DNA of 64,000 nucleotides from Octopus vulgaris. Its lineage: Eukaryota. Position numbers and translations under genes: made by a program. The stretch spans positions 216,442,001 through 216,506,000 of the forward strand of contig OX597814.1 of NCBI GenBank assembly GCA_951406725.2, given 5' to 3'. The notes beneath the pieces were generated by a model, which was given only the letters and a program-made list of their open reading frames with translations, made no database searches and was not told the origin of the DNA. Shown here piece by piece: positions 1-60,149 of the stretch (position 1 is the stretch's first letter; each line of letters starts with the position of its first letter).

Positions 1-3000
1 CTAGGAGAAAGCAACTTGGATAACTGGGATAGCTCCAACATAAAACCTGCGGCTGAGTGGTTACTGATGATGTTGACTTGTTCTTTTTTTCGGGTCATGG
101 CTGCTGTTGCTTAGTGAGTGAGATTGACTCAGTGCACAGCCTTTCCTCACTTTAAAAAAAAATCTTCTTGCACAGGCATTGCATGATAACAACATTGATG
201 ATTGTTGAAAGTGCTGTGAGTCTCAACTGAATGGCTGGCTGTAGCCTTAAAAAGTAAACAATCAATGATGTACCAAAACAATATAAAAATAAATGGCAGT
301 AAGGACTCTGGAACCACATCAGATGAAAGAGCCTGGCACAGCTGGGGCTCCAGAGCATCACAGTCTGAACCCAGCCATCATCGTGCTACTATGATAGAAC
401 CAAAGAAAATATTGAATATTGGCTGTTGGAATGTACGGACACTGCTTGACCACAAGTCCTCAGAATGTCCTGAATGAAGGACTGCTCTTGTTGCGAAGGA
501 GCTTCAATGCTATGATCTTGACATCGTTGCTTTATCTGAGATGAGATTAGCTGGAGATGGTCATCTTACAGAATCTTGTGGAAAATATACAATCTTTTGG
601 AAAGGGAGGAATGAAGAGTTTAGAGGAGAAGCTGGAGTGGCATTTGCTGTTAAGACTACTCTTGTGGACAAGTTGGAAGAATTCCCACTCAGAATTAACG
701 AGTGTCTTAAGTCCATAGCTTACACCTAGTATGGACCTAAGACACTTGTTAATCCCAACTGGAAATTCTTCCAACTTGTCCACAAGAGTAGCCTTAACAG
801 CAAATGCCACTTCTTTGGTTAAAGGAAATGATGTGACCTTGGTGAGTGTGTATGCGCCAACTATATGCTATACTGATGACGAAAAACTTTCTCTCTACCA
901 TGCTTTGAAGTGTATTATAAGAAATATCCCTCGGGCAGACGAAGTCATTGTACTGGGTGACTTTAATGCTAGAGTGGGTAGGGATTTTAACACATGGACT
1001 GTAACTGGAAAGCATGGGGTGGGAAAGTGTAATAGTAATGGCATGCTTTTGCTGCAGATGTGTGAGGAGCTGCGTCTGTGTGTTACCAATACCATGTTTC
1101 AACAAAAGAATAAGTTTAAGATGCATCCTGCATCTAAAGAATGGCATATTCTGGATTACATCCTTGTTAGGGTGCATGACAGACAGGATGTGCAGTGTGT
1201 TCGTGTTCTTCGTGGAGCTGAGTGTTGGACTGACCACTGCCTAGTACGTGCAAAAGTGAAATTAGTCACAAAACATAAAATCCGAGCTGCAGGGATTATC
1301 CTGCCTAAAAGACTGAATGTTGATTGTCTTAGGTGTAATAGTGTGAAGAGAACTTTACGATATTGGGAAGGATTGATCGACAGCTTAAAAAGTCAGTTTA
1401 TGATATAGGCACGAAAGTTCTGGGATTGATACAAAGAAAGCATCAAGATTGGTTTAAAGAAAATGATGAACATATAGATGATTTATTGGTTGACAAAATA
1501 TGTACTTTGTCACGCTATTTGTCAGCAAAGCCACAGGAAAGGGAAGTGTTGCATAGGGAACTCAAGGATGTGAAATCACGTGTGAGGCAGAGGTTCTCTC
1601 AGGTGAGGGATACGTGGTGGAGTAAGAAGGCTGATGAGATACAGGCATCTTCGGATTCCAATAACACAAAGCTGTTGTATGGTCTTTTGCAAGAAGTTTA
1701 TGGACCAACTTCTCTAATGACACCACTTCGAAGCAGGAATGGTAAACAACTTCTTTGTGATTCACAAGGAATTCTGTGAAAGTGGCAAGAACACTTTGAT
1801 GAACTTTTGAATCAGCAGTCCATAGTTAATGACGATGTTCTCAATCTCATCCATGGATTACCTGTGAAGGCGGCTCTCGCAGAACCACCAAAGTTGGAAG
1901 AAGTTGTGGAAGCTGTCTCAAGGATGAATAATGGGAGATCTCCAGGTATGGATGGAATACACGCAGAGTTGATACAGCATGTTGGTGAGAAAATTCTGCA
2001 GCAACTTCACTCTTTGTTTGGCAGGATATGGGCTAATGAATCTGTACCTGAGGACTGGAGAGATACAGTAATGATGGTCTTCTATAAGGGAAAGAGCAAC
2101 AGGAATGATTGTGGTAACTATAGGGGAATATCATTGCTTTCTGTCATAGGAAAGGTTTTATGCAGGGTACTTCTGGATCATCTGCTGAAACACATTGCAC
2201 ATTGTGTTCTTCCAGAAAGTCAATCTGGCTTTCGTGTGGGACGTGGCAGTGCTGATATGATCTTTTCAGCTGGACAGCTTCAGGAGAAGTGTGTGGATTT
2301 ATATCAGGTTTTTGTCGATCTGACAAAAGCCTTTGATACTGTCAATAGAAAAGGATTGTGGAGAGTTCTCCAGAAACTTGGGTGTCCTGAAAAGTTCCTT
2401 GCTTTGGTTAGGTCTTTTCATGAAGACATGAATGGTAGGGTGAATGTTAGAGGGAAAATGTCGGAGCCCATTTCAATACAAAATGGAGTGAAACAGGGAA
2501 ATATTCTGGAAATATGTATTTGCCATATATTTTGCAATGGTTTTTCTGTATTGCATTCAGAAACTGCAGATATGGTGTTTACATCCATTATCAAACCTCT
2601 GGCAGCATATTTAATATCAGGCGCTTTGCTGCAAAAACAAAGGATTTACCTCTATCATAAGAGACCCTTTGTATGCAGATGATTGTGATCTAGTAGTGCA
2701 CACAGAGATTGATATGCAATACATTTTGAATGCATTCTCTGATGCTTGTAGTGCCTTAGGATTGACAGTCAATCTCAAGAAAACAGTTGTCCTGTACCAA
2801 CCTGCCCCTGGTAAGCAGTATAGTGTACCAAATATCTATGTGTATGGTAAACGACTTGATGTACTTGATCAGTTTGTCTACGTGGGAAGCACTATTAATA
2901 GATATAGCAATTTGGATGATGAAATTCCATATAGGTTTAGGAAAGCAAGTGTTGCTTTCGAAAGGCTAGAAAAGCGCCTCTGGAGTCGGCGAGACATATG

Positions 3001-3135
3001 CAGAAAGACAAAGATAAAGGTGTACAAGGCATGTGTGCTCCCTTCTCTTCTCTATGCCGGTGAGACATGGGTCACATATCGATACCACCTTAAACAACTG
3101 GAACGTTTCCATCAGATGTGTCTCAGACGGATCTA
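1..3135 (+). mobile_element. RTE-clade LINE (APE endonuclease + RT), frameshifted, 3'-truncated
   Basis: ORF fragments carry IGCWNVRTL, VSVYAPT, VLGDFNARVG, LDYILV, TDHCLV (APE) and SPGMDG, NYRGISLLS, FVDLTKAFD, GVKQG, YADD, QFVYVGS (RT). Multiple stops and frameshifts; coding sequence stops abruptly near 3135. Confidence 0.9.
636..811. repeat. Imperfect inverted repeat (~82-bp arms, 12-nt loop) inside the RTE endonuclease region
   Basis: 636-717 (agtggcatttgctgttaag...gtccata) is the near reverse complement of 730-811 (tatggac...cttaacagcaaatgccact). The ORF track shows AFAVK.TLVDKLEEFP on both strands. Confidence 0.9.
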
Positions 3136-3152
3136 TTTTTTGTTGCCACATG

Positions 3153-3210
3153 TATCACTGAAGAAGAGAGGGCTCTTAGTAGCTAACTCTGAAATCGGTC
3201 CGATATGGTA
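3153..3210 (+). ncRNA. Type I hammerhead ribozyme motif (Penelope-like pLTR remnant)
   Basis: tatca-CTGAAGA-agag...ctct-GAAA-tcgg-t-ccga-TA-tggta: conserved core, stem I tatca/tggta, stem II agag/ctct, near-palindromic stem III, AUA triplet. Confidence 0.75.
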
Positions 3211-3461
3211 ATAATGGAATTTTTTAGAAATTTCTGTCGGCCTTTTTTCGAGTAGCGTGCGTATTGTGAAAAAATTACATGGTTAATGGACAATATGTCC
3301 AATTTTTCGGCATATTTGGCATTAGAAATCTTTTCCTTTGCCCTCATTTATGAATTGTTTATAAATTTAACCGTTAAAGGTATTTTTTAATATGCTGGCC
3401 ATTGATAAAATTTTTTTCGAGAAATATATTTTTTTCGAAAAGAATTTTATCCTTACATTTG

Positions 3462-3493: not shown

Positions 3494-3780
3494 TATATGC
3501 GTGTGTGTGTGCGTGTAGGTATATACATGTGTGTGTGTGTGTTAATGAAGATATAAATAAGTGGTTATGCAACCATCTAAGGGATAGCCGTTTCCATTGG
3601 CACTCCTGGTGCCAATACCTTACTACGTATAATCCTAGCTGTAAGGTATACGGTAGCAGAAAACCTTGGTTTAATATATATGTGTGCGTGTACTTGGACA
3701 CACCAATTGAAGGTTTGTAGACGAACGCACCAACTTATGGCTAACATTGGAAAAAACCAGATAAATTCTGTGGTGACTGA

Positions 3781-4546
3781 CAAAAGTGAAAGTGAAGTCT
3801 CTCGAGGTGTCAAAAATGAAAGTGAAGTCTCTCGAGGTGTCAAAAATGAAAGTGAAGTCTCTCAAGGTGTCAAAAATGAAAGTGAAGTCTCTCCAGGCGT
3901 CAAAAATGAAAGTGAAGTCTCTCCAGGCGTCAAAAATGAAAGTGAAGTCTCTCGAGGTGTCAAAAATGAAAGTGAAGTCTCTCCAGGCGTCAAAAATGAA
4001 AGTGAAGTCTCTCCAGGCGTCAAAAATGAAAGTGAAGTCTCTCGAGGTGTCAAAAATGAAAGTGAAGTCTCTCCAGGCGTCAAAAATGAAAGTGAAGTCT
4101 CTCCAGGCGTCAAAAATGAAAGTGAAGTCTCTCCAGGCGTCAAAAATGAAAGTGAAGTCTCTCGAGGTGTCAAAAATGAAAGTGAAGTCTCTCGAGGTGT
4201 CAAAAATGAAAGTGAAGTCTCTCGAGGTGTCAAAAATGAAAGTGAAGTCTCTCCAGGCGTCAAAAATGAAAGTGAAGTCTCTCCAGGCGTCAAAAATGAA
4301 AGTGAAGTCTCTCGAGGTGTCAAAAATGAAAGTGAAGTCTCTCCAGGCGTCAAAAATGAAAGTGAAGTCTCTCCAGGCGTCAAAAATGAAAGTGAAGTCT
4401 CTCCAGGCGTCAAAAATGAAAGTGAAGTCTCTCGAGGTGTCAAAAATGAAAGTGAAGTCTCTCGAGGTGTCAAAAATGAAAGTGAAGTCTCTCGAGGTGT
4501 CAAAAATGAAAGTGAAGTCTCTCCAGGCGTCAAAAATGAAAGTGAA
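3781..4546. repeat. 30-bp minisatellite, ~25.5 copies, two main variants
   Basis: Unit caaaaatgaaagtgaagtctct+(cgaggtgt|ccaggcgt) in perfect 30-nt register from 3781 to 4546. Confidence 0.99.
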
Positions 4547-4722
4547 TTCTTCTCTTAACCTACATTCGACTTCATTTCCTATAAAAAAAACTATTTCAGG
4601 TTTTTTCTTCTTTTGAAAAGTTTTCTTTATGTCGTGTGTTGAAAATAATAACAATAAACTTTTGTCACAAAGTTTTCTTGCAAAATAAATCGTATAGAAG
4701 AGGGCAGAGGGGAAGCGGTTTT

Positions 4723-4731
4723 TTCTGGGAA
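4723..4731 (+). promoter_or_regulatory. Candidate STAT (GAS) site TTCTGGGAA
   Basis: Exact TTCN3GAA match ~100 bp upstream of the splice donor at 4831. Confidence 0.4.
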
Positions 4732-4739
4732 AAACACTG

Positions 4740-4830
4740 ATGTCATACAAAGTTATTGTTAAACCAATCAACAGCTTAAAAACGATCAAATAAAGATTCA
4801 AGTTTCAGTTTTACTCAGAGTTGTTACGAG
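4740..4830 (+). other. Putative non-coding first exon of the PARP14-like gene (start approximate)
   Basis: Consensus donor GAG|GTAAGT at 4830/4831 in unique sequence next to IRF/STAT-like motifs. The start-codon exon at 13283 has an acceptor and so needs an upstream exon. Confidence 0.5.
4801..4812 (+). promoter_or_regulatory. ISRE-like site AGTTTCAGTTTT
   Basis: One mismatch from AGTTTCNNTTTC. Further IRF-like motifs nearby (agttttcgtttt ~4834, cactttcaatt ~4910). Confidence 0.35.
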
Positions 4831-5994
4831 GTAAGTTTTCGTTTTACATCTTCCTAATTTAATTTCTTTAATCCTGTCTCTCCATTGCTTTACAAGTACT
4901 TTACAAAATCACTTTCAATTCTTTTCACTACATTATAACTATATGGATTTGTTTCCTGTCAATTTTAAGAATGTGTGTGTGCGCGTGTGTACGTATTTTC
5001 AAGTTTTGTGGTTATATGTGATGTGTGTCATTATGTATGTCTGCAAAGCCATCGATATATTCCCCCATCATTGGAACCTCTTGAAGCTATTTCTAGTAAA
5101 TTTCATTCAAGAACATCAACTTTTCTGAAAGTTACGAACAAACAAAATCGATGGATGGGGCACCTGTGTAAGGTATGCCATGTTTTCCTGGTCATTTAAA
5201 GTAAGACCTGTAATAAAGTCACAAATAATTTATGTCCCCCTAGGACAAAATTCCCTCGGACAATCCCCTTCCTCTGGACAAAAATCCCATAGTTTTCCTG
5301 TTAATTTTTGTTGTTACCTGGATTCCATAAAATTATGTTGAAAGTTTTAACGTACGTGAAGCTAGAAATGGCAGCCAAATCTCCTCATATAGGCCACACC
5401 CTAGAAGAAGACAATTGTTTCACTATCAGGGATACTAACACGTCAGTTTCATGTTGATATTTAAGACGACGGGGGCATTTCTGGCAAATGACCGCCGTCC
5501 CAGTAGAATGAAAATATAGCAAATGCGGGCTAGGATTGAAACAGGGGTTGTAGTGAGAAGCAACCGAAGAGGTATGTGGAAACTTGTTTGGATTTGGTTT
5601 GAGAGAATCTCTGAATAAACAGATTTACTTTTTTTTCGGTTCTTTATTAATTGATATAATACACCATACATACATACAGATATAGTATACATTTCATACA
5701 TATACACACACATATACAATACCTGTATACATTGATAAATGCAGGGTGGGAGGGACAGATTCAGAGTTTGAAATGCCGTGTGGTTTTTAGCGAAATCAGA
5801 ATAATTTGTTATCATCGAAAACATGGGAATTATTTATCCAAGATTTCCCAACAGGTTTCCTATGAAATGAAGCCGCTTTAGTAAAAGGTTACTCTGTAAT
5901 GTTTGTTGATCACGGAAATATATTTACACGTTACTTCACCTTTTTTACTGCGATTCATTTTCAGTCTTAATTTTATTGCTTTTATTTTGATTTC

Positions 5995-6114
5995 TTGGGT
6001 GCGGCGTTAAAAGGCCGTAACATGACACATGGGTTTTTGTTTAGATGTTTTCTTTCTCTCTTTCTCTCTTTCCTTCTTTCTTTCTCTCTTTTTCCTTTCT
6101 TTCCTTCCTCCTCC

Positions 6115-6152
<38 letters not shown>

Positions 6153-9100
6153 ATCTCATCGGTCGTGTTATTCTTTGCTCCGCAGTGAAAGATTGTTTTT
6201 GTGTCGAAAATTGTGAAAATTTACTGTTTTGGTCGTCGAGACCACTTCTTTTCTGCTGTTGCAGCAAAGTTTTACTGTTGTTTCCCCCTTGTTTCAAGGG
6301 GGAAACGGCAAAAAACATGAATTTGCCACCAATTTCTTCCAAGTCCGAGGAAAACTTTGAAAATTTGTTTGAAGGCAGAGAGAAGAAAATGTGGGAGGAG
6401 GAAGGTAAAAGTATAGAGGCGTCTCACGCGCGCGTTACAAAAGCAGACGACAATATGTCGAGCGAGGCTAAACAAGAGGAAAAGTCGAAAATAAATTTTG
6501 CGAGTGCAGCAACTCGCCCCTGCGAAAATATAGTTATTAACAAAGAAGAATTAAAGAAATTTCAAGGACTTCTCAAAAAAGAAGGTGAAAATGTGAAGTT
6601 GCTCCGTCCCAGTGAATTAATTAACGCGACGGAGAGAAAAACTTTGATATATAAGACGTACCATGTGAAAAATAGGAAAATTGACTTCGTGCCGAGGGAA
6701 GCGATAGAAAAATGCTTGAGGCCGATATGGCAACAAACAAGTTATATAACGAGAGATAGTCGCTTCGGCACTGTAGAGGTGCGTTTCCCTAGCAAAGAAA
6801 AAGCCAGGGAACATTCAACAATGACATTGAAGTCGGAAGAAGTAGTTTTCCCGCCGATTTACTTAAGAAGAACCTAAAAAATCAGGGTCAGTGATACACC
6901 ATCCGAAATAGATGTGGCCTGGGTGGTAGCCGCTATTCTCATGGGCAAAGAGGAAGAAATTACAATTCTTCAAAGAGATATCACCACATGAACTAGTTTG
7001 GACAAGATTTAGAGCTTGTCATTCAAGCAAACCCCTTAGATTTAGAAAAAATGCCCAGTTCACTTATAATTGGGGAAAATACCAGCCTGATGGTGGTAGT
7101 TGTGGGGAGAAAGCCCAGGTGTTACAAATGTGGCGAGAAAGGCCACATAAGGTTGAACTGTAAGAAGAAGTCAGCCAAAGAAAACGCAGCAGAAGAGGCA
7201 AGCACGACACCAAAGACAACGACCACACCGCTAGAAATAGCAGCCACGTCGCGCACACATATTGCTGAAGTACAGCCGACAGCAGGAGAAAACAACAACA
7301 ACCAGGAGTGGGTCACCGTGGAACCTTCAAAAAGAAGATGGAAACGAAAATACCCACCCTCTTTGGATACACAGGACTATGCTCCGAGACAGACAAGCAC
7401 ACCCTCACCCACAAATACAGTCGCAAACACACACGTAGCCAAAAAAACACACAGACACATACCACAAGCACACACACACCTACAAACACCGACGCGTCTA
7501 CAAGCACACACACACCCCTCCACAATCGCCTAATATAAAAAAGAGAAACACCTTCACGGCGATAAACGAAAATAATAAACTCTTAAGAGACGAAATTGGT
7601 TTAATGAAATCGGCGAAAAAATATATCGCAACAGATTTAGATAGTATAATTCTCGAAAATGTCGAGTTTTATACCATAGACAACACAGACTATTTCGAAC
7701 TAAAAAAATCGTTTGCAGAGGACATCGGCCTGTTACAGTTGAACTTTTCAAGCCATCTGTACAGGCAATTCGCGAAAAAAATGATGTCGCAAACCACAAC
7801 ACTCACAGACAAAAAAGAGGAGGAGGAAACTACACCCTCTCTCCCGTTAAAACAGTAAGTTTTAAACTCAGTTGTTTAAATATTTGCGACCTCCTTAACG
7901 CTATCTCCTTAACGACCTTGGGTCACATCGTTTGGACATAATTGTAACTACCAAATCCAGACTGAGTGGGCTGCAGGCTTTTTTGCCCCTTCTAAATGGC
8001 TATGGGAAATACATTTCTCCCTGTCGACCAGGAGGGGGCGGAGGAGCAGCAGTGCTGGTCAGGAAAAACCTGTATTTAGAGATTAGAACTGTCTTTATAG
8101 ATCCGGAAGGCAGGTTGATCATTTTTGATGGGATGCACAGCAGTGGTAAAGTGTTCAGGCTGGTCGCTGTCTATGCTCCCTGCGAAGGAAAAGCTGAGCA
8201 GAAAGATTACTTCAAAAGCCTAGAGAATTTTCTCAGCACGTCGAACATGTTAGTATTGCTAGGTGACTTCAACACAATTTGCGATGCACGCGTAGATTAT
8301 GTTGGCTCAAGAAAGAATAGGAAGGAATTACCTCACCTCAATGATCTGCTAAGTCATTTCGAGTTGGCAGATCGATTCAGACTGGACCACCCACATGTTC
8401 CAGCATGGACCTGGGCAAGAAATGAGGAGTCGTCCAGATCTTACATAGATAGAATCATTACTAGAAGGAAAGATTAGAAAATATTTAGCTGTCCACAACA
8501 CCATATCGTCAGCTACAGTGATCACAAATTAGTGACCTGTACGTTTGACCTAGATAGTATGTGTAGACAAGGAATCAGTTACTGGAAGCTAAACAAGTCA
8601 CTATTGGACTGTGAAGCCTACAGGAAGCAGATTAGACAGTTAGTAATGAGGGCATTAACCGGCCCTATTATCAACAACAAACGGTGGTACGCCCTGAAAA
8701 GAGCCATCAAATTTGAGTCAATTAGGTTTAGCAAAGAATTAGCTAGTTCTAGAAACAAATTAGAAAAGGAACTAGTTAAGGCAGTAGATGAGGCAATGAG
8801 GTCAGGCAATGCATCGAAAGTGTTAGCGGCGAGGTTGACACTCGACCAGTATCTCCAAGCTCAACATGAAAGGTGCATTGTCAGGGCTAAGATCTGTACA
8901 ATGAGACAAGAAGGGATCAATGCAGCCGGATAGGCCCGGGTGGTAGAGGGTCAGCATGGCAACAACTCAACCATTCGATCTTTGACAGACCCAAATGGTC
9001 GATCAGTAAACGAACCTGTGGAGATATGCAAGGTGTTTCACGATCTTTTCGCCCAGCTATCTGGGAGAAGCGGTGGACTGGAGCACGGGGAGAAACTCGC

Positions 9101-11200
9101 AGACTTCCTGGCCAGTTCACTGCATCTATCGAGGCCAGATGTGGAATCTTGTGAAGCGCTGATCACAGCCTAAGAAGTTGAGGATGTGTTGGCAGACTGC
9201 GGCGGGGACAAATTGCCAGGACTCGATGGTCTGCCTTATGAACTCTATAGTAGCATGCCAGACTTGTTTGGGCACCTACTTGCATGCGTGTACACCAACT
9301 GGCAGCAGAACGGGAGAATTCCTAAGTCTGTGAGCCGAGGGGTGGTAGCGCTGTTAACAAAGGACCCAAACAAAGGGAATTTAATTGATAATTTTCAGCC
9401 CATCACTCTGCTTAACGCAGAGTTGAAGATTTTGGCCAAGGTCTTAGCAATAAGGCGCAGGTCGTGGGTGAACTTGTTGGCAAGGCACAACCTTGCGCCA
9501 TCCCTGGAAGGACCATCCACGACAATCTCCACTTTCTATGCTATGCCTTAGGGTAAATAGGATTCCTGGCAAGGGTGGGGCTATGGTCCATTTGGACCAA
9601 TCAAAAGCATTCGATAGGGTAGATCATCAGTATCTGGCGGTGGCTGGCTTTGGCCCGAACTTCGACAGATGGATCAATGCTTTATACAGCAACAGCAAAT
9701 CGGTAGTTTGGGTGAACAGTTTCTTTTCGGAGCCGTTTCGTTTTGAACGTTCAGTACGTCAAGGGTGCCCTCTCTCCCTGCTTCTCTACGTTTTGGCCCT
9801 CGAGCCATTGCTGAGGAGGTTGGAAACTATGAGGGGTGCTCCACAAGATCTAGGGTGCGGAAAGTCAGCTTCAGCGTATGCGGACGACATCACCGTCATC
9901 AGATCCCGGGTCGAGCACCTACAGTGGGCGGGTGAGGCCTTAAGAGATTACGAAGCGGTGGCAGGAGCGAAAGTCAACCGGGATAAATCGGTCAGCTTGC
10001 AACTTGTAGGACGTTGGACGGAAGGGCCCATGAAAATGCTTGGTATCTGGTTAGGTCCAGATCTCCAGATAGAGAAGAATTGGAGCGAGATGGCAAGAAA
10101 GGCGGCTCTCCTAACTCAGACCTGGTCTGAGTGGAAGCTATCCTTGAAAGGGGGAGACGGAGGTTGCAGAGGTGTTTATCGCCTGACTGCCATGCTTTGC
10201 CCCGATTTGTGGCTGAACAAGCAGGAACGCATGCTCTTTCGCTTTTTGTGGAGGGGCAGCAGACCTCTTGTAAGGCACTCTATCTGCTGTCAAAAGCTGC
10301 TGAGGGGTGGGTTAGGGATGCCGTGGAAAAAAATGCACAGACATGTGCTCAGGCTTAGGCCCCTCTGGCTTTACCTGGACGGTGAGCTGGTGTGGTCTCC
10401 GTTTGTCAAGCTGTTATTTCCAGTTCACATCGTTTACCAAACTGAACCCATGGATCAAGTGTAGACCGAGGTTGGGCATATGGCATGCAGAGTGCGATCA
10501 GGCACTCGTGCTTCTCTCCCAGTCAGGCAACGCCGGTGGCGGGGGTACTACCTTGTTCTTCTATAGAGGGTTAGTAGAGTTTAAGCGTGACGACGTCCTG
10601 GGAGAAACCCTAGGCTTCAACAGAGATCAACTGGCCAGCCTGTTCCAAAGAACATTCGGACCGGGGCCTATGGATAATTACCAAAAGTCCCTGGCCTGGC
10701 AATGTTACAGAGGAGCTTTACCCATTCGAGATAAGCTCTTTAGACATGGGTGTGCACCTTCACCGGCTTGTGCAAGATACGAGCGGGACAGTGAAACTGT
10801 CCTGCACGCGATTGTGCAATGCTCCAGGGTGACTGAGCTCTGAGCTTATGTTGAACACCTGCTGTTGCATTCGAGAAGAGTACAACTGCTGAGCGAATCT
10901 GTAATTAAGATTGTTCCGCTGACCTCCCTGAACAGGCAGGAGCGAGCCTGTTTTCTCTCGGTAGTTGCTGTTGTGAAAGAGGTAGAATGGAAGACGAGAG
11001 TGAAAGGAATTGCAACAGGCAATGTTGAAAGGGAGAAAAAAGCAGTTCAACTCCAATTGAAATCAATTTTTTTCTTGTAACATTGCGTCTGCTTAATGTT
11101 TGTCATAGAAAGGGCTCCGCTCATTTTCACTTAGACATGCGACTCTTGAAAAAGGAGCAGACAGTCTTTCGGAATAGCTACAAATAAAGGTCAAGTCTTT
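5995..11200 (+). mobile_element. Tx1/L1-like LINE, near full length, degenerate (ORF1 with CCHC knuckle; ORF2 APE+RT)
   Basis: ORF1 ~6317-7858 with RCYKCGEKGHIRLNC. ORF2 ~7860-11080 with LVAVYAP, LLGDFN, SYIDRI, YWKLN, PGLDGLPYE, PITLLNAELKILAK, LDQSKAFDRVDH, SVRQGCPLS, AYADD and a C-terminal C..ETVLHAIVQC zinc motif. Confidence 0.88.
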
Positions 11201-13282: not shown

Positions 13283-13317
13283 AGCAAAATTACATGTTGA
13301 AATCATGGCGGAGAAAG
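13283..13317 (+). CDS. PARP14-like exon 2 (35-nt micro-exon; ATG at 13305, MAEK-G)
   Basis: Polypyrimidine tract + ttgcAG acceptor, strong-context atcATGg, donor AAG|GTATTT. Phase 1 joins in frame to 31867 (MAEKGISASSMEGED...). Confidence 0.7.
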
Positions 13318-26887: not shown

Positions 26888-28335
26888 TCAAAAATGATGA
26901 AACGTAGTAATCCTATAAAGCCTTCTTGTACACAATGCTTTTTGTTTTTCGTTGTGGAACGAATGCGAGCAGGCAACATAAAGCTGACCATGAGAGAAAC
27001 ATGGCTCTCCCAAATGTATTCCTGCTACAGACAGTGTTTGACCCTGCGCTTTGTTAATTGACAAAGCGCAGGGAAATTTGATATTAATTTCCATTGTGAA
27101 ACATGGCCTTACTGGGAACTGGGACCTCTGAAATATGAAAGGTAGGTCTGCTCCTGATGGGAAAAGATGCATCCTAGGTATGAGCACAACGTTGCCTTGA
27201 CCGCACCCTGTGATAATGGTGGCCTCAATCAGATTGGGAGATAAGGACTTAACGATGAAACGTGTGCCATTGCATTGTTTTGGGGGAACCAAATTTCTAA
27301 TGAGCATTATAGGAGCACCAACTTTAAGTTTGAGAATGTGTGGTGGTAGTCCAGGGGGCTCAAAGGAATTGAGTACCTCTATTGGATAGTTGATGACATC
27401 CTCTGGGTCAGGAGTTGTATCGATAGACTTATATACATAGACATCCCCAGGAATGAGTTTTAGCATTTCATCATTAATATGGTGAACAGTTTTATTCCTC
27501 GGGGCCAGAATAGCCCTTTGGCCAATCCAATCCATATTCTGATAATTAGCTTGTAGATCTGGGAATGCTGCATCTCTGAGATCAGAAGGCGTTTTAACAA
27601 TAGTACAAATAGAATCGATGGCAATATTACCATTTTCATCCCCTGGTATTTTGCCTTCACCAAGTGCAAGGAGGGTGTGAGAAAATGCTGCTGATGTGAT
27701 ATCACGTTGCATATGAGCACGCATATTGGTGTGAAGTTTGAGAGTCTTCACCAGTGGCCACAATGTGGATGACTTAAGACACGCACTTACTGCATCAGCT
27801 GTAGTCCCTTTGGGAAGTGTTTGTCGGAAGTCCCCTGAAAGAAGAAGTGTTATGCCTCCCATGGGAGCTGAAGAGTGTTTGATGTCTCTGAGAGATCTAT
27901 GTAGTGCCTCAAGAGCATGTCTGTGGGCCATCGTGCATTCATCCCAAACGATAAGCTTGCATCGTCTGAAGACTTCTGCCTGATCGGAGCTGTTACTGAC
28001 GTTGCAAGTTGGTGTCTCAGTCTTCGCTAAATCAAGCGGGAGCTTGAAAGTGGAGTGAGCTGTCCTGCTGCCTGGCAACAAAGTAGCTGCAATTCCAGAT
28101 GATGCCACAGCTAGGGCAATGCCTTGTGTTCGCCTAATCTCAGCCAATATTAATTTGTCGACAAAAGTTTTCTTAGTGCCCCCAGGAGCATCCAGGAAAA
28201 AAATCCCCCCAGCTTTGGCCCAGACTGAATTAACAACAGAGTTGTAAGCGAACTTGTGTTCTGGAAGGAGCTTTGGCTCATTGTCGGCTATGTACTCGGC
28301 AAGCTCGTCAACATTAAAACATGTCTCACGCAGCA
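26888..28335 (-). pseudogene. Helitron PIF1-like helicase fragment
   Basis: FLDAPGGTKKTF (Walker A G>K), VASSGIAATLL, IVWDECTM, SGDFRQTLP, ILAPRN, CNGTR, SINKAQGQTL, FSHGQLYVACS. The ORF-track start (28405) lies in a SINE. Confidence 0.9.
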
Positions 28336-28344
28336 AATGTGAAG

Positions 28345-28450
28345 ACAGAGTGTTTGTGCCTACACATGCCAAGTCACCACACAGTGGGACTGAACCCAGG
28401 ACCATGTGTTTGGAACGTAGTTTGTTACCACACAGCCACGCCTGCCCCTA
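28345..28450 (-). mobile_element. tRNA-derived SINE head
   Basis: cagtgggactgaacccaggaccatgtg...ccacacagccacgcctg (rc of A/B-box head). Related copies at ~34190-34340, 38040-38195 and 51360-51515. Confidence 0.7.
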
Positions 28451-31866: not shown

Positions 31867-32064
31867 GAATATCTGCCTCGAGTATGGAAGGAGAAGATGA
31901 GGGCAGAACGATATTGGTGTCAGGAATCCCAACTGATTTCCGTTTGGAAGCCATTCAGTCTTATTTTGAGAACAAGAGTAGATCAAGTGGAGGACCTATT
32001 AAAGGAAAGCCAGAACGGATCCAAGATTCTGAGGAAGTTATTATCACTTTTGAATCGGAAAAAG
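31867..32064 (+). CDS. PARP14-like exon 3 (RRM-like repeat)
   Basis: ttttgcAG/GTtaga, phase 1-1, 198 nt: GISASSMEGEDEGRTILVSGIPTDFRLEAIQSYFENKSRSSGGPIKG...VIITFESEK. Confidence 0.88.
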
Positions 32065-33632: not shown

Positions 33633-33869
33633 ATGCAGAAAATGTTGTCCAAAGGAAGGTCCATAATGTAAGCAAACATAAACTTCATGTGGACTGGTAT
33701 AAAAATCTAGTCTGGCAAGAAGATGCAATGGTTGTGTCAAATGGCCCCAAAGACATGTCGGAAAAAATGTTAATTGATTTTTTGGAAAAGACAGGAAAAT
33801 TAGATATTGTATATGTTTCCCCTGGAAGAAAAGCTGGAACTTTTCTTGTGTATTGCCAAAATGAAATTG
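33633..33869 (+). CDS. PARP14-like exon 4
   Basis: ttttcAG/GTAAGT, phase 1-1, 237 nt: DAENVVQRKVHNVSKHKLHVDWY...GTFLVYCQNEI. Confidence 0.85.
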
Positions 33870-38358: not shown

Positions 38359-38590
38359 ATTTTGAGTATGTTCAGAGGATGTGCCAAAAAAAACCCTTAA
38401 AAGGAAATCAACTGAAAGTGGATAGAATTAAGGAAATAAACAGTGTTCAAGTGAAAAACGTTTCTTCAAATGTCAGCTCTGACAGTCTTCAAAGATATTT
38501 TGGAAACAGAAAAAAGTTCTGGTGGAGATATTTCTTCAGTTCAACAACAAACCTCTGATACTTACATTATAAGTTTTAAAGAGGCATGTG
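38359..38590 (+). CDS. PARP14-like exon 5 (RRM-like repeat; +1 frameshift as assembled)
   Basis: ttgcAG/GTAAGT, 232 nt: DFEYVQRMCQKKPLKGNQLKV...DSLQRYFGNRK. Removing one base near the A6 run (38510-38515) restores SSGGDISSVQ...YIISFKEAC. Confidence 0.82.
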
Positions 38591-42781: not shown

Positions 42782-42947
42782 TTGAATTTTCTGCTGCTTT
42801 AAATAAAGCATATTACTCTACCACTGGTATTTGAGTACTCTTTTTTTCCGCCTTGTTTCACATTTATGTGTTTACTCTGGTGTAACCCGCTCCTTATAAA
42901 AGTTTGAGCGACTCTGCACAAGAAGGAAGAACAATCAGCTGAAAAAG

Positions 42948-45083
42948 ATGGAACTTTACCCGCTGGATTTTTCTCAGAAAAATATACCTATCCCTGCACG
43001 GAAGCAATATCTCAAAGGTCTTATAGAGAAAACGGAAGAGTTTATTCGAAGATTGAGATGGAAAGCCTTCTTCTTTGATACTAAACAGAAAACAGACAGA
43101 AACAAACGTGGATTTAAATCTCCCAGAAACCCGCCACCTATTCCGGAATTAGAAGCCTTCGAGAAAGACCTTTTCGAACTCATTAGGAAAATTAAATTCC
43201 ACAAATATAGCAACCAATTACAGAGAAATATGAGAGAAAAAATTAAGGAGATTAACAACTCAAATAAGATCTTCGTTAATTCTGATAAGACAAGGAACTT
43301 ATATGCACTTGATAAGGATGTTTACAAGCATCTAATTTCGAATAGTGTCACAAATACATACAAAAAAGATAACACGAATATATACAAAGAGGTGAACTTA
43401 GAAGCAAGAGGAATAGCTAACGATCTTAAAATTAGCGATAGGATTGAATATCTTTCACCACGACCAGCTTTTATTACTCTAAAAGACCATAAAGCCAATT
43501 TTAATAGAAACCCCAAATGTAGATTGATAAATCCGACTAAAACTGAGATAGGAATTATTAGCAAAAATATTTTGGACCGTATTTTAGCTAAGTTAGATAG
43601 TGAAGTTGACTTGAAAATTTGGAAGAATAGTAAGTCAGTCATAGAGTGGTTTAAAGGTATTAGCTATAAGAATAACTGTAGTTTCACACAATTCGACATT
43701 ATTGACTTTTACCCGTCAATATCTAGGACGTTGCTCCTAAGGGCATTGGACTTCGCCAAGCAGTATGTCAGCATCGATAGCTCGGAAATTGATATTATTA
43801 TGCATGCGAGGAAATCGCTTCTTTTTTTCGAGGATTCCACCTGGATTAAGAAGACTGAGGATTCTCTTTTCGATGTACCGATGGGGGCATACGACGGGGC
43901 TGAGTTATGTATGCTCATAGGAGCCTTTATTCTTCATAATCTAAAAATAGAATTCCCATTTATAGATGCAGGTTTATATAGGGATGACAGCCTTATAGCC
44001 ACGCATAATCTAAACGGCCATGAATCAGATAGACTTAGGAAGGACCTTATTGCTTTCTTTCAAAGGATGGGCTTACGGGTTACAATAGATGCTAACCTAA
44101 ATAGTGTAGATTTTTTAGACGTAAATTTTAATGTAAGGTCGGATAGATTTAAACCTTTCCGTAAGCCCAATGAAAAGCTATCGTATATTAGCAAAGATTC
44201 GAACCATCCACCAGTTATCCTTAGGAACTTAGTCAGCAATGTAGGTAGAAGAATATCTTCAATTTCTTCGGACGAGGCAGCATTCCATAATGCTGCACCT
44301 TATTACGATAGCGCATTAAAGAATAGTGGATTCTCTGAGAAGATCCAATACAGCCAGCTTAATGCTGATAATAATGCTGCACGAAGAACTAGGACCAGGA
44401 AAGTTTTGTGGGTCAACCCGGCTTTTAATTTGGTCGTAAAGACTAATATAGGTAAGGAATTTTTGAGATTAGTCTCTAAGCATTTTAAGCATGGCCATAA
44501 ATTCTATAGGATATTTAATAGAAGAACCCTGAAGGTTAGCTATTCTTGTTGCAGAAATTTCGCCTCTTACATTAGCCAACATAATAGGAATCTGATTGAG
44601 ATTAGACATGGTGCCGAGCCCATTAAGAAATGCAATTGCAAAAACGAAAACTCCTGTCCATTAGAAGGGAAATGTCTAGTGAAAGGAGTAGTTTATAGAG
44701 CCAAGGTGCAAATAGAAGGCTCATCGGAATACAAGACATATACAGGGGCTTCAGAAAATTCATTTAAAACACGATTTTATTCGCATAAAAATTCATTTAG
44801 ATACCCAGAGAATAGGAAGAGGACCAGCCTAGCAAAATATGTCTGGGAACTAAAAGAAAAGGAAACCCCACCTTTCAACATGACATGTAGCATTCTGGAC
44901 AGAGCGGCACCATACAGGCATGGAGCGCACAGGAATAATTTTAAATGCAAGCTTTGTCTATTAGAGAAACTGTATATTTTATTCAAAGACAATAATTCTT
45001 TGAATCAAAGAAGTGAGCTAATGAACTTATGTAGACACGCAACCAAATTTAAAATGTCAAATATAAATATACCATATGGTTAG
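42948..45083 (+). CDS. Penelope-like RT + GIY-YIG endonuclease polyprotein, 711 aa
   Basis: FSQKNIPIP, RRLRWKA, SDKTRNLY, FITLKDHK, CRLINP, FDIIDFYPSI, DVPMGAYDGAE, GLYRDD, VDFLDV, SNHPP; CNC..CPLEGKC, VVY..YTG, FKTRFYSH, CKLCLLEK, CRH. No stops. Confidence 0.95.
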   Translation: MELYPLDFSQKNIPIPARKQYLKGLIEKTEEFIRRLRWKAFFFDTKQKTDRNKRGFKSPRNPPPIPELEAFEKDLFELIRKIKFHKYSNQLQRNMREKIKEINNSNKIFVNSDKTRNLYALDKDVYKHLISNSVTNTYKKDNTNIYKEVNLEARGIANDLKISDRIEYLSPRPAFITLKDHKANFNRNPKCRLINPTKTEIGIISKNILDRILAKLDSEVDLKIWKNSKSVIEWFKGISYKNNCSFTQFDIIDFYPSISRTLLLRALDFAKQYVSIDSSEIDIIMHARKSLLFFEDSTWIKKTEDSLFDVPMGAYDGAELCMLIGAFILHNLKIEFPFIDAGLYRDDSLIATHNLNGHESDRLRKDLIAFFQRMGLRVTIDANLNSVDFLDVNFNVRSDRFKPFRKPNEKLSYISKDSNHPPVILRNLVSNVGRRISSISSDEAAFHNAAPYYDSALKNSGFSEKIQYSQLNADNNAARRTRTRKVLWVNPAFNLVVKTNIGKEFLRLVSKHFKHGHKFYRIFNRRTLKVSYSCCRNFASYISQHNRNLIEIRHGAEPIKKCNCKNENSCPLEGKCLVKGVVYRAKVQIEGSSEYKTYTGASENSFKTRFYSHKNSFRYPENRKRTSLAKYVWELKEKETPPFNMTCSILDRAAPYRHGAHRNNFKCKLCLLEKLYILFKDNNSLNQRSELMNLCRHATKFKMSNINIPYG

Positions 45084-50062: not shown

Positions 50063-50290
50063 AATAAAATAAATACCAGTTGAGCACTGGGGTTAATGTA
50101 ATTGACTTAGCCACACACTTGAAATTGCTGGCCTTGTGCCATAATTTGAAACGAAAATTTCAGTGATGTTTATGGTCAATAAAATAAGTACCAGTTGAGC
50201 ACTGGGGTTGATGTAATTGACTTAGCCACTCTCCTGAAATTGCTGGCCTTGTGCCAAAATTTGAAACCAAAATTCCAGTGATGTTTATGG
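50061..50290 (+). repeat. 115-bp tandem duplication of a SINE tail plus flank
   Basis: tcaataaaataa.taccagttgagcactgggg...cagtgatgtttatgg at 50061-50175 and 50176-50290. Confidence 0.9.
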
Positions 50291-50327
50291 TAAATATTCA
50301 TGAAAGACGTATTCTATCTGGTCTCAG

Positions 50328-51319
50328 ATTTTTTAAGCAGGCAGAAAGACAATCTGAAGATCTACAAGTCAGAATTCATGGTAACAAAGTTATTTTTGAA
50401 GGCCAGTATTCCGAATTAGCTACTTGTCTCAAGAATATGTATAAAATTCTTCAGTCAATTGTTAAATCCAAAGTGCGTTTGCCTTTAAATACTGGAATGA
50501 TCATAAATAAAAAACCAGTGAAAGAATATCTTGATGAAGAACTGAGAAACAAGAAATGTATTGGTTCATGGGAAACGGGTGATGGTGATTCAGTATTATT
50601 TTATGCAAGTGATAAAACACATCTTTCACTTTTGGAAGAAATTATGAAAGAAACTTTTGTTGCCAACACACTGGATTTTGTAGACAAAATTTAGGATTCT
50701 CCAAATTATGGAAAGTGGCTGACATTTGTTGAAAGTCTAAAAGAAGAGTTTCCAGATTCCCATTTTATTGGAGAAAATTCTATTGTTGCTATTGATGCTG
50801 TAGTTGATGTTATAAAACACAAAATTGATAACTTTAAGCAATCTTTAACGTATGAATCTTATATATCGATGAATCATGCACATTTCCTCTCTTTTACAGA
50901 GTTCAAAGAACAGAAAATCAATGATTTTAGTGAAGAAAATAAAATTAAGAATGTGGGTCTCAAACATAATAAGTTACACCTGAAAGGAACACAAGAGCAA
51001 ATTAGGAAAATGGAAACATGTTTAGAAAATTTAAGAAAAGATATCATCTCAAAAGTTGGAACATTTAGATCTCAAGAAACCCAGAAAAGTGAAGAAGGAA
51101 AAAATTTCTTATGGGAAAAGCAGAAGAAATCTGAGAGTATAAAATTAAATTCAGATTTAGAAAGTGAAACAGAAGAAATACTTAATTTTGTGTATAAGAA
51201 CTGTGAAATCGTGTTGAGGGAAGGTGACATCACGACTCTGGACACAGATGCTATTGTTAATGCTGCAAATGGTAGATTGGAACATATGGGAGGTGTTGCA
51301 GCAGCCATTGTGCAGAAAG
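50328..51319 (+). pseudogene. PARP14-like large exon (KH-like region to macrodomain N-terminus) with internal TAG
   Basis: ORFs 50251-50694 and 50869-51324 are in the same frame, separated only by TAG 50692-50694. Ends EGDITTLDTDAIVNAANGRLEHMGGVAAAIVQK G|GTTAGT. Candidate acceptor AG 50326-50327 (phase 2). Confidence 0.85.
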
Positions 51320-51699
51320 GTTAGTAATACCATTTTTTATAGTTAATGTTTCTTTTTAGATCCAAGTGTGGTTGAGAAGCTAACTTCCTGATCACGTGGT
51401 TTCAGGTTCAATTCCACTCACAGCATTTTGGACAAGTGTCTTCTGTTATAGGTCAGTGGTTGGCCAAAGCCTTGGGAGTGGATTTCGTTGAAAGAAACTG
51501 AAAGAAGATCATCATGTATGTATGCATGAACATGTTAACTTTCTTTTAAAAACCGTTACTTGTGCAGATGCATTTTCTTTTTATAATTATTATTTTTATC
51601 TTATTTGTGTGCATGTGTGTGTTAATATATTTGAAAAACAACATAACCATTAGATTTATATAGACAATGCTTTCAATACAGTTAGCGGTAAGTAAATTA

Positions 51700-52150
51700 A
51701 TCTATTCTTAAAATTTCATTATTACTAGTGAGAGTATGATATGCTAATATGTTTATGTGTAGAAGTTAAAATTTGAAAAATTTTATCAATACAAAAATTG
51801 CAATGAGAATATCCAGTTTTATAGGATTTCGCATATCTTATGATTTCCCACTTTAGGTTATGATTTTTATTATTATCCTTTAATTCCCAAATAGACTTCT
51901 TTAGACTAGTATAAGATAATTTACTTCTGTTTATAATTGTGCACCCATGGTTTGTAATATACATTTTTATGTAATTTTCCATAGATCCCATGCTTAAATT
52001 TGCAGTCACAATACATATTTTTATTTGCTCTTATAGACTTGCTTTCAGTCTTATCATTGCTCAAAGCTTTAGTATTCTGGTTACAGTAGGATACAACATT
52101 CATTGTTTCCCTTCATATTTTAGAAGATTTCTTTTTTTGTATATTCACTA
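51700..52150 (-). mobile_element. Naiad-type PLE GIY-YIG fragment
   Basis: CDCK, TSLKKSIWELKD..LKWEIIRYAKSYKTG..CNFC on the minus strand. Confidence 0.7.
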
Positions 52151-53416
52151 TAATCAGTATTATTTTTGTTGTCAAGTAATAAATCATTACTAAATCTAAC
52201 TGTACTGTTATAGAAATGAGTTAACTGTTTATTGTTATGTGAAAATATAATCTGAGAAACCTTGGTCGAGACATAATATCCAACACAGAGCCTGCTGGGG
52301 TTAATTATGTCGTAATACTTTATTTCTTTAGAAAAGTGATTTGTAAATAGTTTATAAAGAGATTTAACTAAATTTTAACCATCGCAGGTCAGATCATCAC
52401 CACGCATTAAATACCCCTGCAAATTTTCAGCTCGATCCTAGCATGTCTAGTGCCATTGAATCCTTACCAAAGCCAAAGTGTGCAAGCTTTTTCCCTCTTT
52501 TATATAAGTAGATTATATATATTCCTAGGCTTGTCCACGTGTACAGTAATACCATCCTTTCTCTTAAGTTCCAAGATTATTATTTTAATATTTCTCAAAT
52601 GCGTATCTCCTCTGTGGGGTGTATTTTTAAGATTTAACATTTTTTAGTATTTTCCACGACTCATATTCAAAGTTTGCTTGGTGAATATTTGGTGGTGAGT
52701 ATCTCTTTGTTGTAAACTGATACAACAGTGGTATTCCTTTGTCACTTTTGGTCCTTCACTGCTTTCCCATTTTCTTGTCAATAAGTCTAGGGGTGAACTC
52801 TATTGTCCTTTTTTTCTAAATCAAATCCTTGATTCGAATAAATTGATCTACTTACCACTAACTGTAGCGAAAGCATTGATTATACAAATCTAATGGTTAT
52901 GTTGTTTTGCAGTTATATTAACACACACATGCACTTAATCATCATCATCATCATTTAACGTCCGCTTTCCATGCTAGCATGGGTTGGACGGTTCAACTGG
53001 GGTCTGGGGAGCCCGAAAGCTGCACCAGTCCAGTCAGATCTGGCAGTGTTTCTACAGCTGGATGCCCTTCCTAACGCCAACCACTCCGAGAGTGTAGTGG
53101 GTGATTTTATGTGCCACCGACACAGGTGCCAGACGAGGCTGGCAGACGGCCACGCTCGGATGGTGTTTTTTATGTGCCACCGACACAGGTGCAAGACGAG
53201 GCTGGCAGACGGCCACGCTCGGATGGTGTTTTTATGTGCCACCGACACAGGTGCCAGACGAGGCTGGCAGACGGCCCTTAAATAAGATAATAATAACAAC
53301 AACAACAACAATAATAATAAAAACAATGCATCAACACAAGTAAGGGTTTATTTAAAAAACATTGCCACGTGCATAACTGAGGGATGGTATATACATACAC
53401 ACACATATATATATAC

Positions 53417-53447
<31 letters not shown>

Positions 53448-54560
53448 GGTGAGAAGCCAGGTCTTGACAACACACATTGGTTGTAAATGAACATAAAAAT
53501 CACTCAAGTGATGTCCAAAATGATTCTGAATGTTTCAATTGAAAAACATATCTGAATGTGTTAGACAGTTTTTGAGGAAATTCTAACTTAACAAGAAATA
53601 TAGGAAGAGAAAGTTGTGTTTATTTACACCACGCGACACATTATCGCGCACACACAGATACACACTTACATTGATATGTGTGTGTGTGTGTGTATTTTAG
53701 TTTTTGTTTACTTATATACATCAACAAATGAACCAATTGAATAACTATGTGGTTGTTCAATTTGCTAGAAATAACAGCCAAATCTCTCTCATACTATAAG
53801 GAAAAAATAGAATATTATTGAACTTCTTCGGCTCCATGATTTTAATTTTATTTTTAAAGGCTTACTTGATAGCAAAAGAAAAAAAAATTAGGAACATCTT
53901 GATTAAAACAGAAATTCTAACTTAACAAAAAATATAGAAAGAGAAACAAAAGTTTGTATGTGAAAGCCAAAAGATGTTTTTTAGCTGAGGTGTAATTTTA
54001 TGGTTAAAACAAATTCAAAATTTAAATCTTGGAACATAAGACTTACCATGTCATCTGGTGTATGGCCGAATTCAAATGGGTAGAAGACCTAAAAGACATG
54101 TGTGTGTGTGAGCTTGGGTATTTAATAGCCAGGGGTCAATTTCAGTTTAATCCTAGAAAGGAATTCAAATAATCAGCAACTCTGAAAAGACAGCTTCATG
54201 CTGTCATCTCTCTCTACCCCTCTCTCTTTTTCACTCTCTTTCTCTCTCACTTTCTCTCTCCCTTATGTGACACCCAGTATTAAATTTAAGTATCTTAATT
54301 TTCTCATTAAGACCGTTGTTGCTTCAGTAGCCCAGAAGACATGGGCATTGAGAAGTAGTAATACAAAACATAGGTGGTGGTTTCAAATCTCTCCCAGAAA
54401 TTACAAGAGACCTACTTAAAAAATTTTATTTAAGCAACAAAACTTCTTTCAACAATTTCTTTCTCTTAAGTGTTGCACACGTGTCAGGTGTGGCATATTA
54501 ATATTATTGATATATATTAACATATATGAACATGTATTAAGAAAGCAAATATCTTTGCAG

Positions 54561-54809
54561 GTGGGTTTGGAATTCAAGCTGAATCTAACAGAATTATGAA
54601 AGAAAGAAAGAGTGAACTGAAACCTGGAGAAGTAGTGTCAACTAAAGCTGGTAAACTAAAATGCAAGGCTATCATTCATGCTGTTGGACCCGTTTGGAAT
54701 AATGGAAGGATTCAGGAAATGGATTACCTTTCAAGAGCCGTTCAAAATTGTTTGGCAGTTCTTGAAGAAAAGTCTTATACATCAATTGCAATTCCTGCCA
54801 TCAGTACAG
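54561..54809 (+). CDS. PARP14-like macrodomain exon
   Basis: ttgcAG/GTAAG, phase 1-1, 249 nt: GGFGIQAES...GEVVSTKAGKLKCKAIIHAVGPVW...SIAIPAIST. Confidence 0.92.
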
Positions 54810-55982
54810 GTAAGAATTTACCATTTTAATTCTGTTCAAATTATTTGGTATAGAAATAAGAATTACAATATTCAAATATCTTCAGTTTGTTTCATCACTA
54901 CTCTCTGTCCATGCTGGAGCAGCACTGCCTTGAAAAATTTTTAGTCAAGTGAATCAATCTTAGTGTCCTTTGGCCTGCGCTAGGGAGTTTTAAGGTGAAG
55001 TGCAGTGCATGCAAACTGGCCCCACCCTTTAAGCACAAGCTTCATCTACCATGGCCTAGCGAGCTGGGACAGTGACAGCAAGATCCTCAGGCCATAGGTT
55101 TAAAGTCGGAGTTATCCTCTCCTACGAGGGTTGCCAACAATGGCTAATGAGCCCCTCCTGCCTGTGCCATCCAAACCTAGGTGAAAGAGAGAAAAGGATT
55201 CATGGTTTTCAGTAGGCATACCTGGTTGCCTAGGCCGGAGTAGGGGGTTAGCTAAGGAGACCCCCCACCTGGAGCCTTTGACTAAAAAGTATATCTACAA
55301 GGCAGCAAAGCGAGATCAGGGAGTCACACCGATTGATAGATGATGATGAGTAGACTAGTTCATACGCCTTTGCTTGGTCATTAACCAAACCGGAGTCCTA
55401 ATGATCAGGAAATTCCATTTGAGCCATTGACCAAATGGTTCTTCCGCCTCTTCTGGGATACAATGCCTCGGCTGAGACAAGGGACAGTGGCAATACAATA
55501 TGTACATTTTATATACACACACAGAGTTTAAAATGCAATATATACACCATATACAGTGTTTAAAATGTTTTTTTTTAAAAATGCAATACATACAATACAC
55601 ACACACAGACACACATGCACAAAGCACTCCGCACACACATGTTGTTGGATGGCTATTGACTATGCTGTAGTTCTTCCGCCCTTTGAAAAGTCTTATATTT
55701 TGTGCTGCAGGGTGTCCAACAAACACCCGCCTCACCAAGCAAGCCTGGTGGGGTTGCCAGTTTAGTTGCCAAAGACCCGACCATGTAACAGGTTATACTG
55801 GACTACATGCTACCAGTAGCAATCAAGTGACCTTAGTACATATTGTTTTAAAGTATGGTACTTATTCTATCAATCTCTCTTGCTGAACCACTAAGTTACA
55901 TGGACATAAACACACCAACACCAGTTATCAAGTAGTAGTGGGAACAAACACATGCATATATATGTATATATATATATATATA

Positions 55983-57580: not shown

Positions 57581-57699
57581 GAGGTTTCAGTTTCTGTCTA
57601 CCAAATCCACTCACAGGGCTTTGGTCAGACCAAGGTTATAGTAACATAATTACTATCAAATAGGAATGAAATCCAAAAAAGTCCAATTTCAAATGAAAG

Positions 57700-59805: not shown

Positions 59806-59985
59806 GTATTTATGGTATACCCATAGAAAAGGGAACCAAATGTACAGTAACAGCTATAAAGGAATATCTTGATACTCACTCGAATTCTAAAATAAAACAT
59901 ATTTGTTTGATTGATATACGGAAGGAAGTAATCAGAGCTTTTAAGCTTCATCTAGAAATGGTGTTTGGAATCAGTAAAAGCAGAG
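59806..59985 (+). CDS. PARP14-like macrodomain C-terminal exon
   Basis: ttacAG/GTAGG, phase 1-1, 180 nt: GIYGIPIEKGTKCTVTAIKEYL...IKHICLIDIRKEVIRAF. Confidence 0.9.
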
Positions 59986-60149
59986 GTAGGACTTGTTATT
60001 TATTTGATATTTTAGTGAAAATTTAAATGATTTATTTCAGGTGTTAATTAAGATTTTTCCTCCTTCAGTCAACTTTTATCTGATTCCTATTATGTATTAT
60101 GGGCAGAGTCATGGATTTGTGGTTAAAAAGCTTCATTTCGAACCATGTT

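Follow-up and report, generated by a model that had tools for sequence, protein, structure and literature searches.

A locus-specific minisatellite of IRF-type motifs on the likely IRF/STAT promoter of a damaged PARP14-like gene copy in octopus

How antiviral genes are switched on in invertebrates that lack classical interferon is an open question to which the locus described here is relevant. The human PARP14 gene has a functional composite promoter of GAS and ISRE elements (PMC10287828). In molluscs, ISRE binding has been reported for IRFs of oyster and scallop, and the existence of an interferon-like protein in oyster has been put forward (PMC13524488, PMC8218723). The affinity of IRF1 grows with the number of AAGTGA repeats (PMC7819612), and IRF dimers can make use of one strong and one weak half-site (PMC5861432). 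Nothing on octopus PARP14 promoters occurs in the available portions of PMC9712504, PMC8195618, PMC8218723, PMC8476169 and bioRxiv 2026.04.23.720386, and a literature search with subscription journals and supplements outside its range returned no paper dealing with the expansion of PARP14 in octopus or with the promoters of that family, and none describing a minisatellite of IRF sites in nature.

The stretch of Octopus vulgaris DNA that was analysed (the window) is 64,000 nt in length, and the features of the locus are listed in Table 1. Near its beginning is a minisatellite of IRF-type motifs that is real and specific to this locus, and the sequence comparisons indicate that it sits on what is likely an IRF/STAT promoter. 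The array, the GAS site (TTCTGGGAA at 4723), the ISRE-like motif (AGTTTCAGTTTT at 4801) and the splice donor (GAG|GTAAGT at 4828-4836, 280 bp past the array) are all found where the original prediction had placed them.

Table 1. Features of the array, the promoter cassette and the PARP14-like gene, in window positions
Feature	Position	Strand	Remarks
30-bp minisatellite	3781..4550	+	25.7 units in two interspersed variants; one AANNGAAA IRF half-site per unit, then GT-GAAG
Native IRF-E site of the cassette family	4533..4547	+	GAAT end in the window, GAAA in the usual paralog form
Upstream GAS, degenerate	4675..4683	+	TTCTTGCAA; intact TTCNNNGAA in 10/27 copies
TATA-like box, degenerate	4693..4700	+	TATAGAAG; several paralogs TATAAAAG
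GAS (STAT-type) site	4723..4731	+	TTCNNNGAA kept in 25/27 copies, variable centre
Non-coding exon 1	4742..4830	+	5' end uncertain; at least 4778-4830 present in spliced contigs of paralogs
ISRE-like motif in exon 1	4801..4812	+	TTTCNNTTT kept in 21/27 copies; full AGTTTCAGTTTC in L038
Exon 1 5' splice donor	4828..4836	+	cut after 4830
Exon 2	13283..13317	+	start codon 13305 (MAEK); 14 genome copies; paralog protein P0015 contains RAKLHVEIMAEK
Exon 3, PARP14-type RRM	31867..32064	+	
Exon 4	33633..33869	+	77-82% to paralog proteins
Exon 5 (RRM), 232 nt	38359..38590	+	A-run frameshift in this assembly, near 38510
Large central exon remnant	50290..51321	+	first ~170 codons absent, in-frame TAG at 50692
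First macrodomain exon	54561..54810	+	Pfam Macro E 4e-22
Next exon after macrodomain 1	59807..59986	+	

The cassette family and its first exon

The window gene has RRM and macrodomain exons, and the proteins closest to it are annotated Octopus PARP14-like proteins; full paralogs encode RRM, macro and PARP domains. There are about two dozen PARP14-like genes in octopus, and the expansion on contig C1 includes partial and internally duplicated copies. The C1 clusters are four in number and occupy both ends of the contig (5.3-5.8, 7.5-9.5, 206.0-207.2 and 215.8-216.6 Mb).

The last array unit with its right flank has 22 further matches in the genome. Together with nt 4551-4960, this unit makes up a cassette that occurs about 29 times (a query with nt 4640-4960 gave 33 matches, corresponding to about 29 cassettes), every one of them on C1, where they share clusters with 20 full-length matches to the central exon of the PARP14-like gene. 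For each of the 14 genomic copies of exon 2 the nearest cassette lies upstream on the same strand, at a distance of 6-76 kb, while shuffling of strands gave a mean of 7.0 such pairs (P 5e-5). Contigs that join 4830 to exon 2 letters were present in two of the four presumed-RNA runs examined, under two organism labels; the runs examined were 4/9 presumed-RNA and 4/15 others, RNA status being a guess, and the contigs carry neither expression level nor condition. Their exon 2 letters fit four of the 14 copies and not the window's own. The donor of the proposed 4830>13283 junction is spliced to exon 2 of paralogs, while the exon 2 of the window itself was unmatched.

From the complete pairing with exon 2 and the spliced paralog contigs it follows that the cassette is the first exon of the PARP14-like family, as observed directly in paralogs, and likely its promoter as well, in agreement with what had been predicted for the window gene. 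The spliced paralog contigs include at least 53 nt of exon 1 and start upstream of the ISRE-like word, which, since at least 4778-4830 is held in them, lies in the 5' UTR. A contig of run X19 is identical to the window copy and begins at the first intron base, a weak hint that this copy is itself transcribed. In run X15, a contig joins the end of a paralog exon 1 to letters resembling those from 4970 (4969|4970 in the window), and this suggests that intron 1 has another acceptor 140 bp from its start.

Structure of the array and constraint on the promoter motifs

The tandem array has a period of 30, 25.7 copies, 96% matches and no indels (TRF). The half-site AANNGAAA is present in 26/26 units, and there are 27 AAGTGA hexamers across the array. 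The longer word AAATGAAAGTGAAGT, thought to be in all units but the first, requires a small correction: it occurs in 24 of 26, unit 1 indeed reading AAGTGAAAGTGAAGT and the last, partial unit AAATGAAAGTGAATT. The two-core form AANNGAAANNGAAA, in which GAAA cores are two bases apart, is found in none of the 26 units, because 25 continue after the half-site with GT-GAAG and the last with GT-GAAT. Two unit variants are interspersed at 13:10, in the order AAaBBABBABBBAAABBABBBAAAB, so that the array has the form of a candidate VNTR (units of 10-60 bp arranged head to tail, their variants interspersed) as well as of a homotypic tandem repeat, being a large cluster of 26 copies of a single motif. 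It has 24 CpGs, with an o/e of 0.76 vs 0.45 across the window. The 30-bp period had also been taken to bring the sites roughly into helical phase, and this could not be upheld: at 10.5 bp/turn there is a slip of 51 degrees per unit, so the sites are not phased on free DNA, and would be so only near 10.0 bp/turn.

A 19-mer taken from the unit has 27 exact matches in the 2.8 Gb genome, 24 of them in the array and three in paralogous cassettes, and the reversed 19-mer has none. The unit is therefore not a dispersed repeat, and is not scattered through the genome away from PARP14-like genes, a distribution that would have told against the original prediction. This distribution, the cassette family and the pairing with exon 2 together rule out a dispersed repeat or transposon end as the source of the array. 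Both unit variants were found in tandem context, in 55-nt contigs, in DNA run X2, which comes from a different study; a contig of run X17 matches 4500-4746 with zero substitutions, and in run X12 a contig of the array end continues into a further unit. Given these contigs the array is no assembly artefact, and the occurrence of both variants in an independent DNA run means that it is not private to one animal. The contigs of these three runs are collapsed and their depth gives no copy number, so no array length can be read from them. Runs X4 and X5 have the flank 3631-3759 with one difference and no array-type contig among those listed, and in X2 and X9 most of the same flank is without listed cover; holes of this kind prove nothing.

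Most cassettes have one IRF unit, L002-L006 have two (the first being degenerate in L005-L006), and the sister copy L032 has lost the IRF site and has zero units. Paralogs thus range from 0 to 2, and 26 are found only in the window copy. A duplication of 30 bp, comprising the IRF-E and its left flank, would have produced the seed of two units, a form that is observed in L002-L006, and replication slippage or unequal exchange would then have raised two units to 26 and mixed the two variants. Every added unit reads GAAG because the duplicated 30 bases stop one letter before the second core. Tandem growth is common among these cassettes, both with and without motifs. An 82-84-bp GAS-TATA-GAS segment is doubled in L012 (1306-1474) and tripled in L016 (1222-1470), and cassette L005 is flanked by two 37-bp minisatellites of >21 copies that contain no IRF word (L005:1-905, 2315-3117; TRF).

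Twenty-seven cassettes were compared, i.e. the 29 donor-anchor matches less one duplicate and one cut copy, with donor-less copies excluded. The GAS and ISRE-like motifs, first noticed in the window, recur family-wide (in 25/27 and 21/27 cassettes, respectively) and are situated close to the 5' end of a PARP14-like gene, as in a composite promoter; GAS sites number 0-5 per family promoter. A strict two-core IRF-E is present at the native site in 13 of 22 aligned cassettes. The combination of a strict IRF-E and a GAS within 330 bp was seen in 0/1013 local tiles and in 3/4000 shuffles of cassette L004, and all three motifs together in 0/4000 shuffles, although the ISRE-like pattern used in this last count had been derived from the very site under study.

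The core of the ISRE-like motif shows one parsimony change vs 7.5 expected (p 0.014), its conservation being weaker when deletions are counted (p about 0.05). The GAS core shows three vs 6.4 expected (p 0.17-0.21), which is not significant alone, and the variable centre of this site is partly a CpG. In the upstream IRF-site core there are 10 changes vs 10.6 expected (p 0.51-0.59), i.e. conservation is at background level. Pooled motif cores have 14 changes over 23 columns, compared with 15 over the 9 columns of spacer (p 0.006), and fewer changes than background (p 0.03); a sliding-mask null that counts gaps gave p about 0.05, 0.08 and 0.26. Support for constraint on GAS and ISRE is moderate, and for constraint on the IRF unit it is absent. 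The cassettes were selected through a donor anchor near the ISRE, which may bias conservation. The family-wide GAS/ISRE cassette is a sturdier finding than the array.

Looser motif composites were dropped because common repeats contain ISRE-like words. ISRE-like motifs were encountered within two recurrent words (GGAAACTGAAAG; AAGTGAAATCGAAA type) at L068, L073, L075, L077, L081 and L083 and in the window at about 46,840 (-), and these words, lying in unrelated regions, are apparently interspersed repeats.

The octopus genome has three IRF genes and one match to the STAT N-terminal domain. IRFs with GAAA-contacting residues are present, the RCALNS recognition helix being kept in two of the three (residues according to PMC7819612). 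Since IRF dimers tolerate one weak half-site (PMC5861432), binding of an octopus IRF to the GAAG array units is plausible on sequence grounds. When the upstream regions of 15 candidate genes were scanned, GAS or ISRE clusters were found at two of the three IRF genes, vs 0 in 334 kb of background, and none at STAT, the third IRF or 11 CARD regions. At the first of the two IRF genes (L071, C25 about 8,919,950-8,920,130, +), a stretch of 70 bp contains three GAS, of which two belong to what looks like a short duplication. This trio is about 100-170 bp before CAG|GTAAGT, no other consensus donor being present in 20 kb, and an exon for the IRF DNA-binding domain follows 15 kb downstream. The site resembles a STAT-driven IRF promoter. 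Upstream of the other (L070, C10, -), two ISRE share a stretch of 75 bp and two GAS one of 64 bp (about 37,561,650-37,561,720 and 37,559,750-37,559,810). Eleven CARD_2 matches are clustered within about 210 kb of C24 (38.85-39.06 Mb).

Damage to the window copy and interpretation of the array

Several exons of the window gene are damaged (Table 1), and neither a macrodomain-2/3 nor a catalytic exon, both of which paralogs have, was found in the 306 kb that begin with the window. The 52 matches to catalytic exons all lie at or before C1:216,381,691, and none is downstream of the window; a Pfam PARP search had missed the split catalytic exons of this family, which were recovered with a paralog protein query. 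The frameshift in exon 5 may be a sequencing error. Two intact copies of the central exon, each with a macrodomain-1 exon, follow at about 92 and 159 kb, counted from the first letter of the window, so a truncated protein could be made, and the product of the window gene is at best truncated and non-catalytic. The idea that the array tunes a working antiviral gene therefore finds no support, the copy being damaged and devoid of catalytic exons. Within the cassette, the TATA box and one GAS are lost, and of six window-private or near-private changes three fall in motif cores (last IRF core, upstream GAS and TATA; p 0.027, post hoc), a pattern that fits rewiring as well as decay.

Other elements were noted in and around the gene. 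The block of central exon and macrodomain has undergone a recent tandem duplication (50278-62274 vs C1 about 216,534,000-216,550,000; 95-97% identical). Intron 2 harbors a 519-aa open frame (26888-28447, -) with a PIF1 helicase match (E 2.5e-58) that is likely Helitron-type, and a 727-aa uninterrupted frame at 42900-45083 (+) has no Pfam match and, judged by eye, may be Penelope-like. Broken LINE remnants (+), with matches to reverse transcriptase, endonuclease and zinc-knuckle, lie upstream of the array (220-3211) and in intron 1 (6026-10843).

The reading we lean towards, at somewhat better than even chances, is a slippage expansion at a single locus of a likely IRF site within a shared and likely IRF/STAT promoter cassette, in a damaged copy and with little selected function. 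The array would then likely be a by-product rather than a tuning device. An octopus IRF, once active, would bind each AANNGAAA half-site, and any effect of the array would fall on a transcript unable to encode a catalytic PARP. In favour of a by-product are the background rate of change in the IRF core, the lack of two-core units, the loss of the site in L032, the motif-free arrays beside L005, and the lesions of a gene with no catalytic exon. Against this reading are the sharing of array variants with independent run X2, the presence of motifs in other larger cassette duplications too (L012, L016 and the GAS of the C25 IRF), the X19 contig, the intact downstream central exons, and a frameshift that is possibly a sequencing error. 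The GAS result that is not significant alone, the weaker ISRE result with deletions counted and the three of six private core changes also count against it.

It is possible, with a good deal less confidence, that the array functions as a homotypic enhancer, or as a sponge, for IRF, in which case the paralog or its cluster neighbours would have been rewired from TATA/STAT to IRF control, with a truncated RRM-macrodomain protein as product. The 26 half-sites and 27 AAGTGA hexamers speak for this, as do the dependence of IRF1 affinity on repeat number (PMC7819612), the pairing of strong with weak half-sites by IRF dimers (PMC5861432), the occurrence of the array in other samples, the repeated inclusion of motifs in paralog duplications, and the intact downstream exons. 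However, the IRF core is without constraint across paralogs, all full units have GAAG for their second core, the units are unphased, and the spliced contigs fit paralogs rather than a window copy that has no catalytic exon. A broader version, slightly more doubtful again, is that the natural 26-site multimer either brought a PARP14 paralog that is truncated and non-catalytic from TATA/STAT to IRF control or acts on the whole cluster, be it as an enhancer or as a sink for IRF. It would then be one case of repeated motif amplification (IRF x26, GAS segment x2 and x3) by which induction is diversified among the members of an expanded, ISG-like octopus family, with an IRF/STAT regulon common to this family and vertebrate PARP14.

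It is unlikely that the motifs have nothing to do with IRF and STAT, the ISRE-like word being an initiator-like element or the result of exon 1 constraint, and the rest chance occurrences in AT-rich DNA. The initiator-like consensus is TCANTT, and the invariant A and variable next base of TTTC-A-N-TTT do fit YYANWYY; the single-motif tests are weak, and the choice of a donor anchor near the ISRE may have biased conservation. Yet the 53 nt or more of exon 1 in the spliced contigs begin upstream of the ISRE-like word, the composite is in 0/1013 tiles, GAS/ISRE clusters occur at two of three IRF genes, and a functional GAS+ISRE site exists at human PARP14 (PMC10287828). Less probable still is a silencing role, by which the motif cluster would recruit MORC3-like repression, or an IRF2/PRDM1-type repressor, to the window copy. 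The motif of PRDM1-type repressors is similar to that of the array, which is rich in CpG relative to the window, and the TATA and one GAS are gone from this copy. In human cells, repression is known of clusters with 26-61 motifs (PMC13373173), but those are SPI/ETS, AP-1 and SP/KLF clusters rather than IRF. An assembly artefact is very improbable given the tandem-context variants in X2, and so is a coding repeat, even with four long stop-free frames running across the array, as the 325-aa frame that crosses it has no Pfam match and paralogs keep the flanks without the repeat.

The PARP14-like family amounts to a natural promoter series, in which IRF units number 0, 1, 2 or 26 and GAS sites 0-5, and since this series is on the octopus counterpart of the human GAS+ISRE gene, it makes an IRF/STAT regulon directly testable. 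Should the array work, the range of motif-cluster tandem-repeat enhancers would come to include IRF sites as well as invertebrates; should it not, it is an example of a striking motif array arising on a decaying paralog.

Comparison with known systems

By analogy, the family promoter is likely to answer to IRF and STAT as human PARP14 does. In both cases, a PARP14-type gene has GAS and ISRE/IRF sites at its 5' end, but in the human gene the GAS directly adjoins the ISRE and function has been shown (PMC10287828), whereas in octopus the two are about 70 bp apart and predicted from sequence. Unlike human PARP14, the octopus cassette has been copied about 29 times, and one copy has a 26-unit IRF array.

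The array itself may be likened, again putatively, to homotypic motif tandem repeats, for which the PU.1-rich IFNB1 enhancer is the model case (PMC13373173). IFNB1-MRE and TWIST2-MRE are, like the array, tandem repeats with one immune transcription factor motif per unit, in 26-45 copies, beside a gene that they possibly regulate. The motifs of the MREs are of the PU.1/SPI kind, and their activity as enhancers, which MORC3 represses, is proven (PMC13373173), while the octopus array consists of IRF half-sites, is about 170 bp from a GAS, and is private to one damaged paralog of an invertebrate. In its repeated AAGTGA and AANNGAAA words it also resembles the multimerised AAGTGA/IRF-E used to define IRF1 binding, but is natural, with a 30-bp period and one full core per unit (PMC7819612). 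Clustered duplications of RRM-macro-PARP genes are likewise seen in the PARP14-like clusters of lancelet and sponges, of which lancelet has four genes (PMC13224862); in octopus, the central exon has 20 full-length matches, spread over several clusters of a single contig, and many copies are partial.
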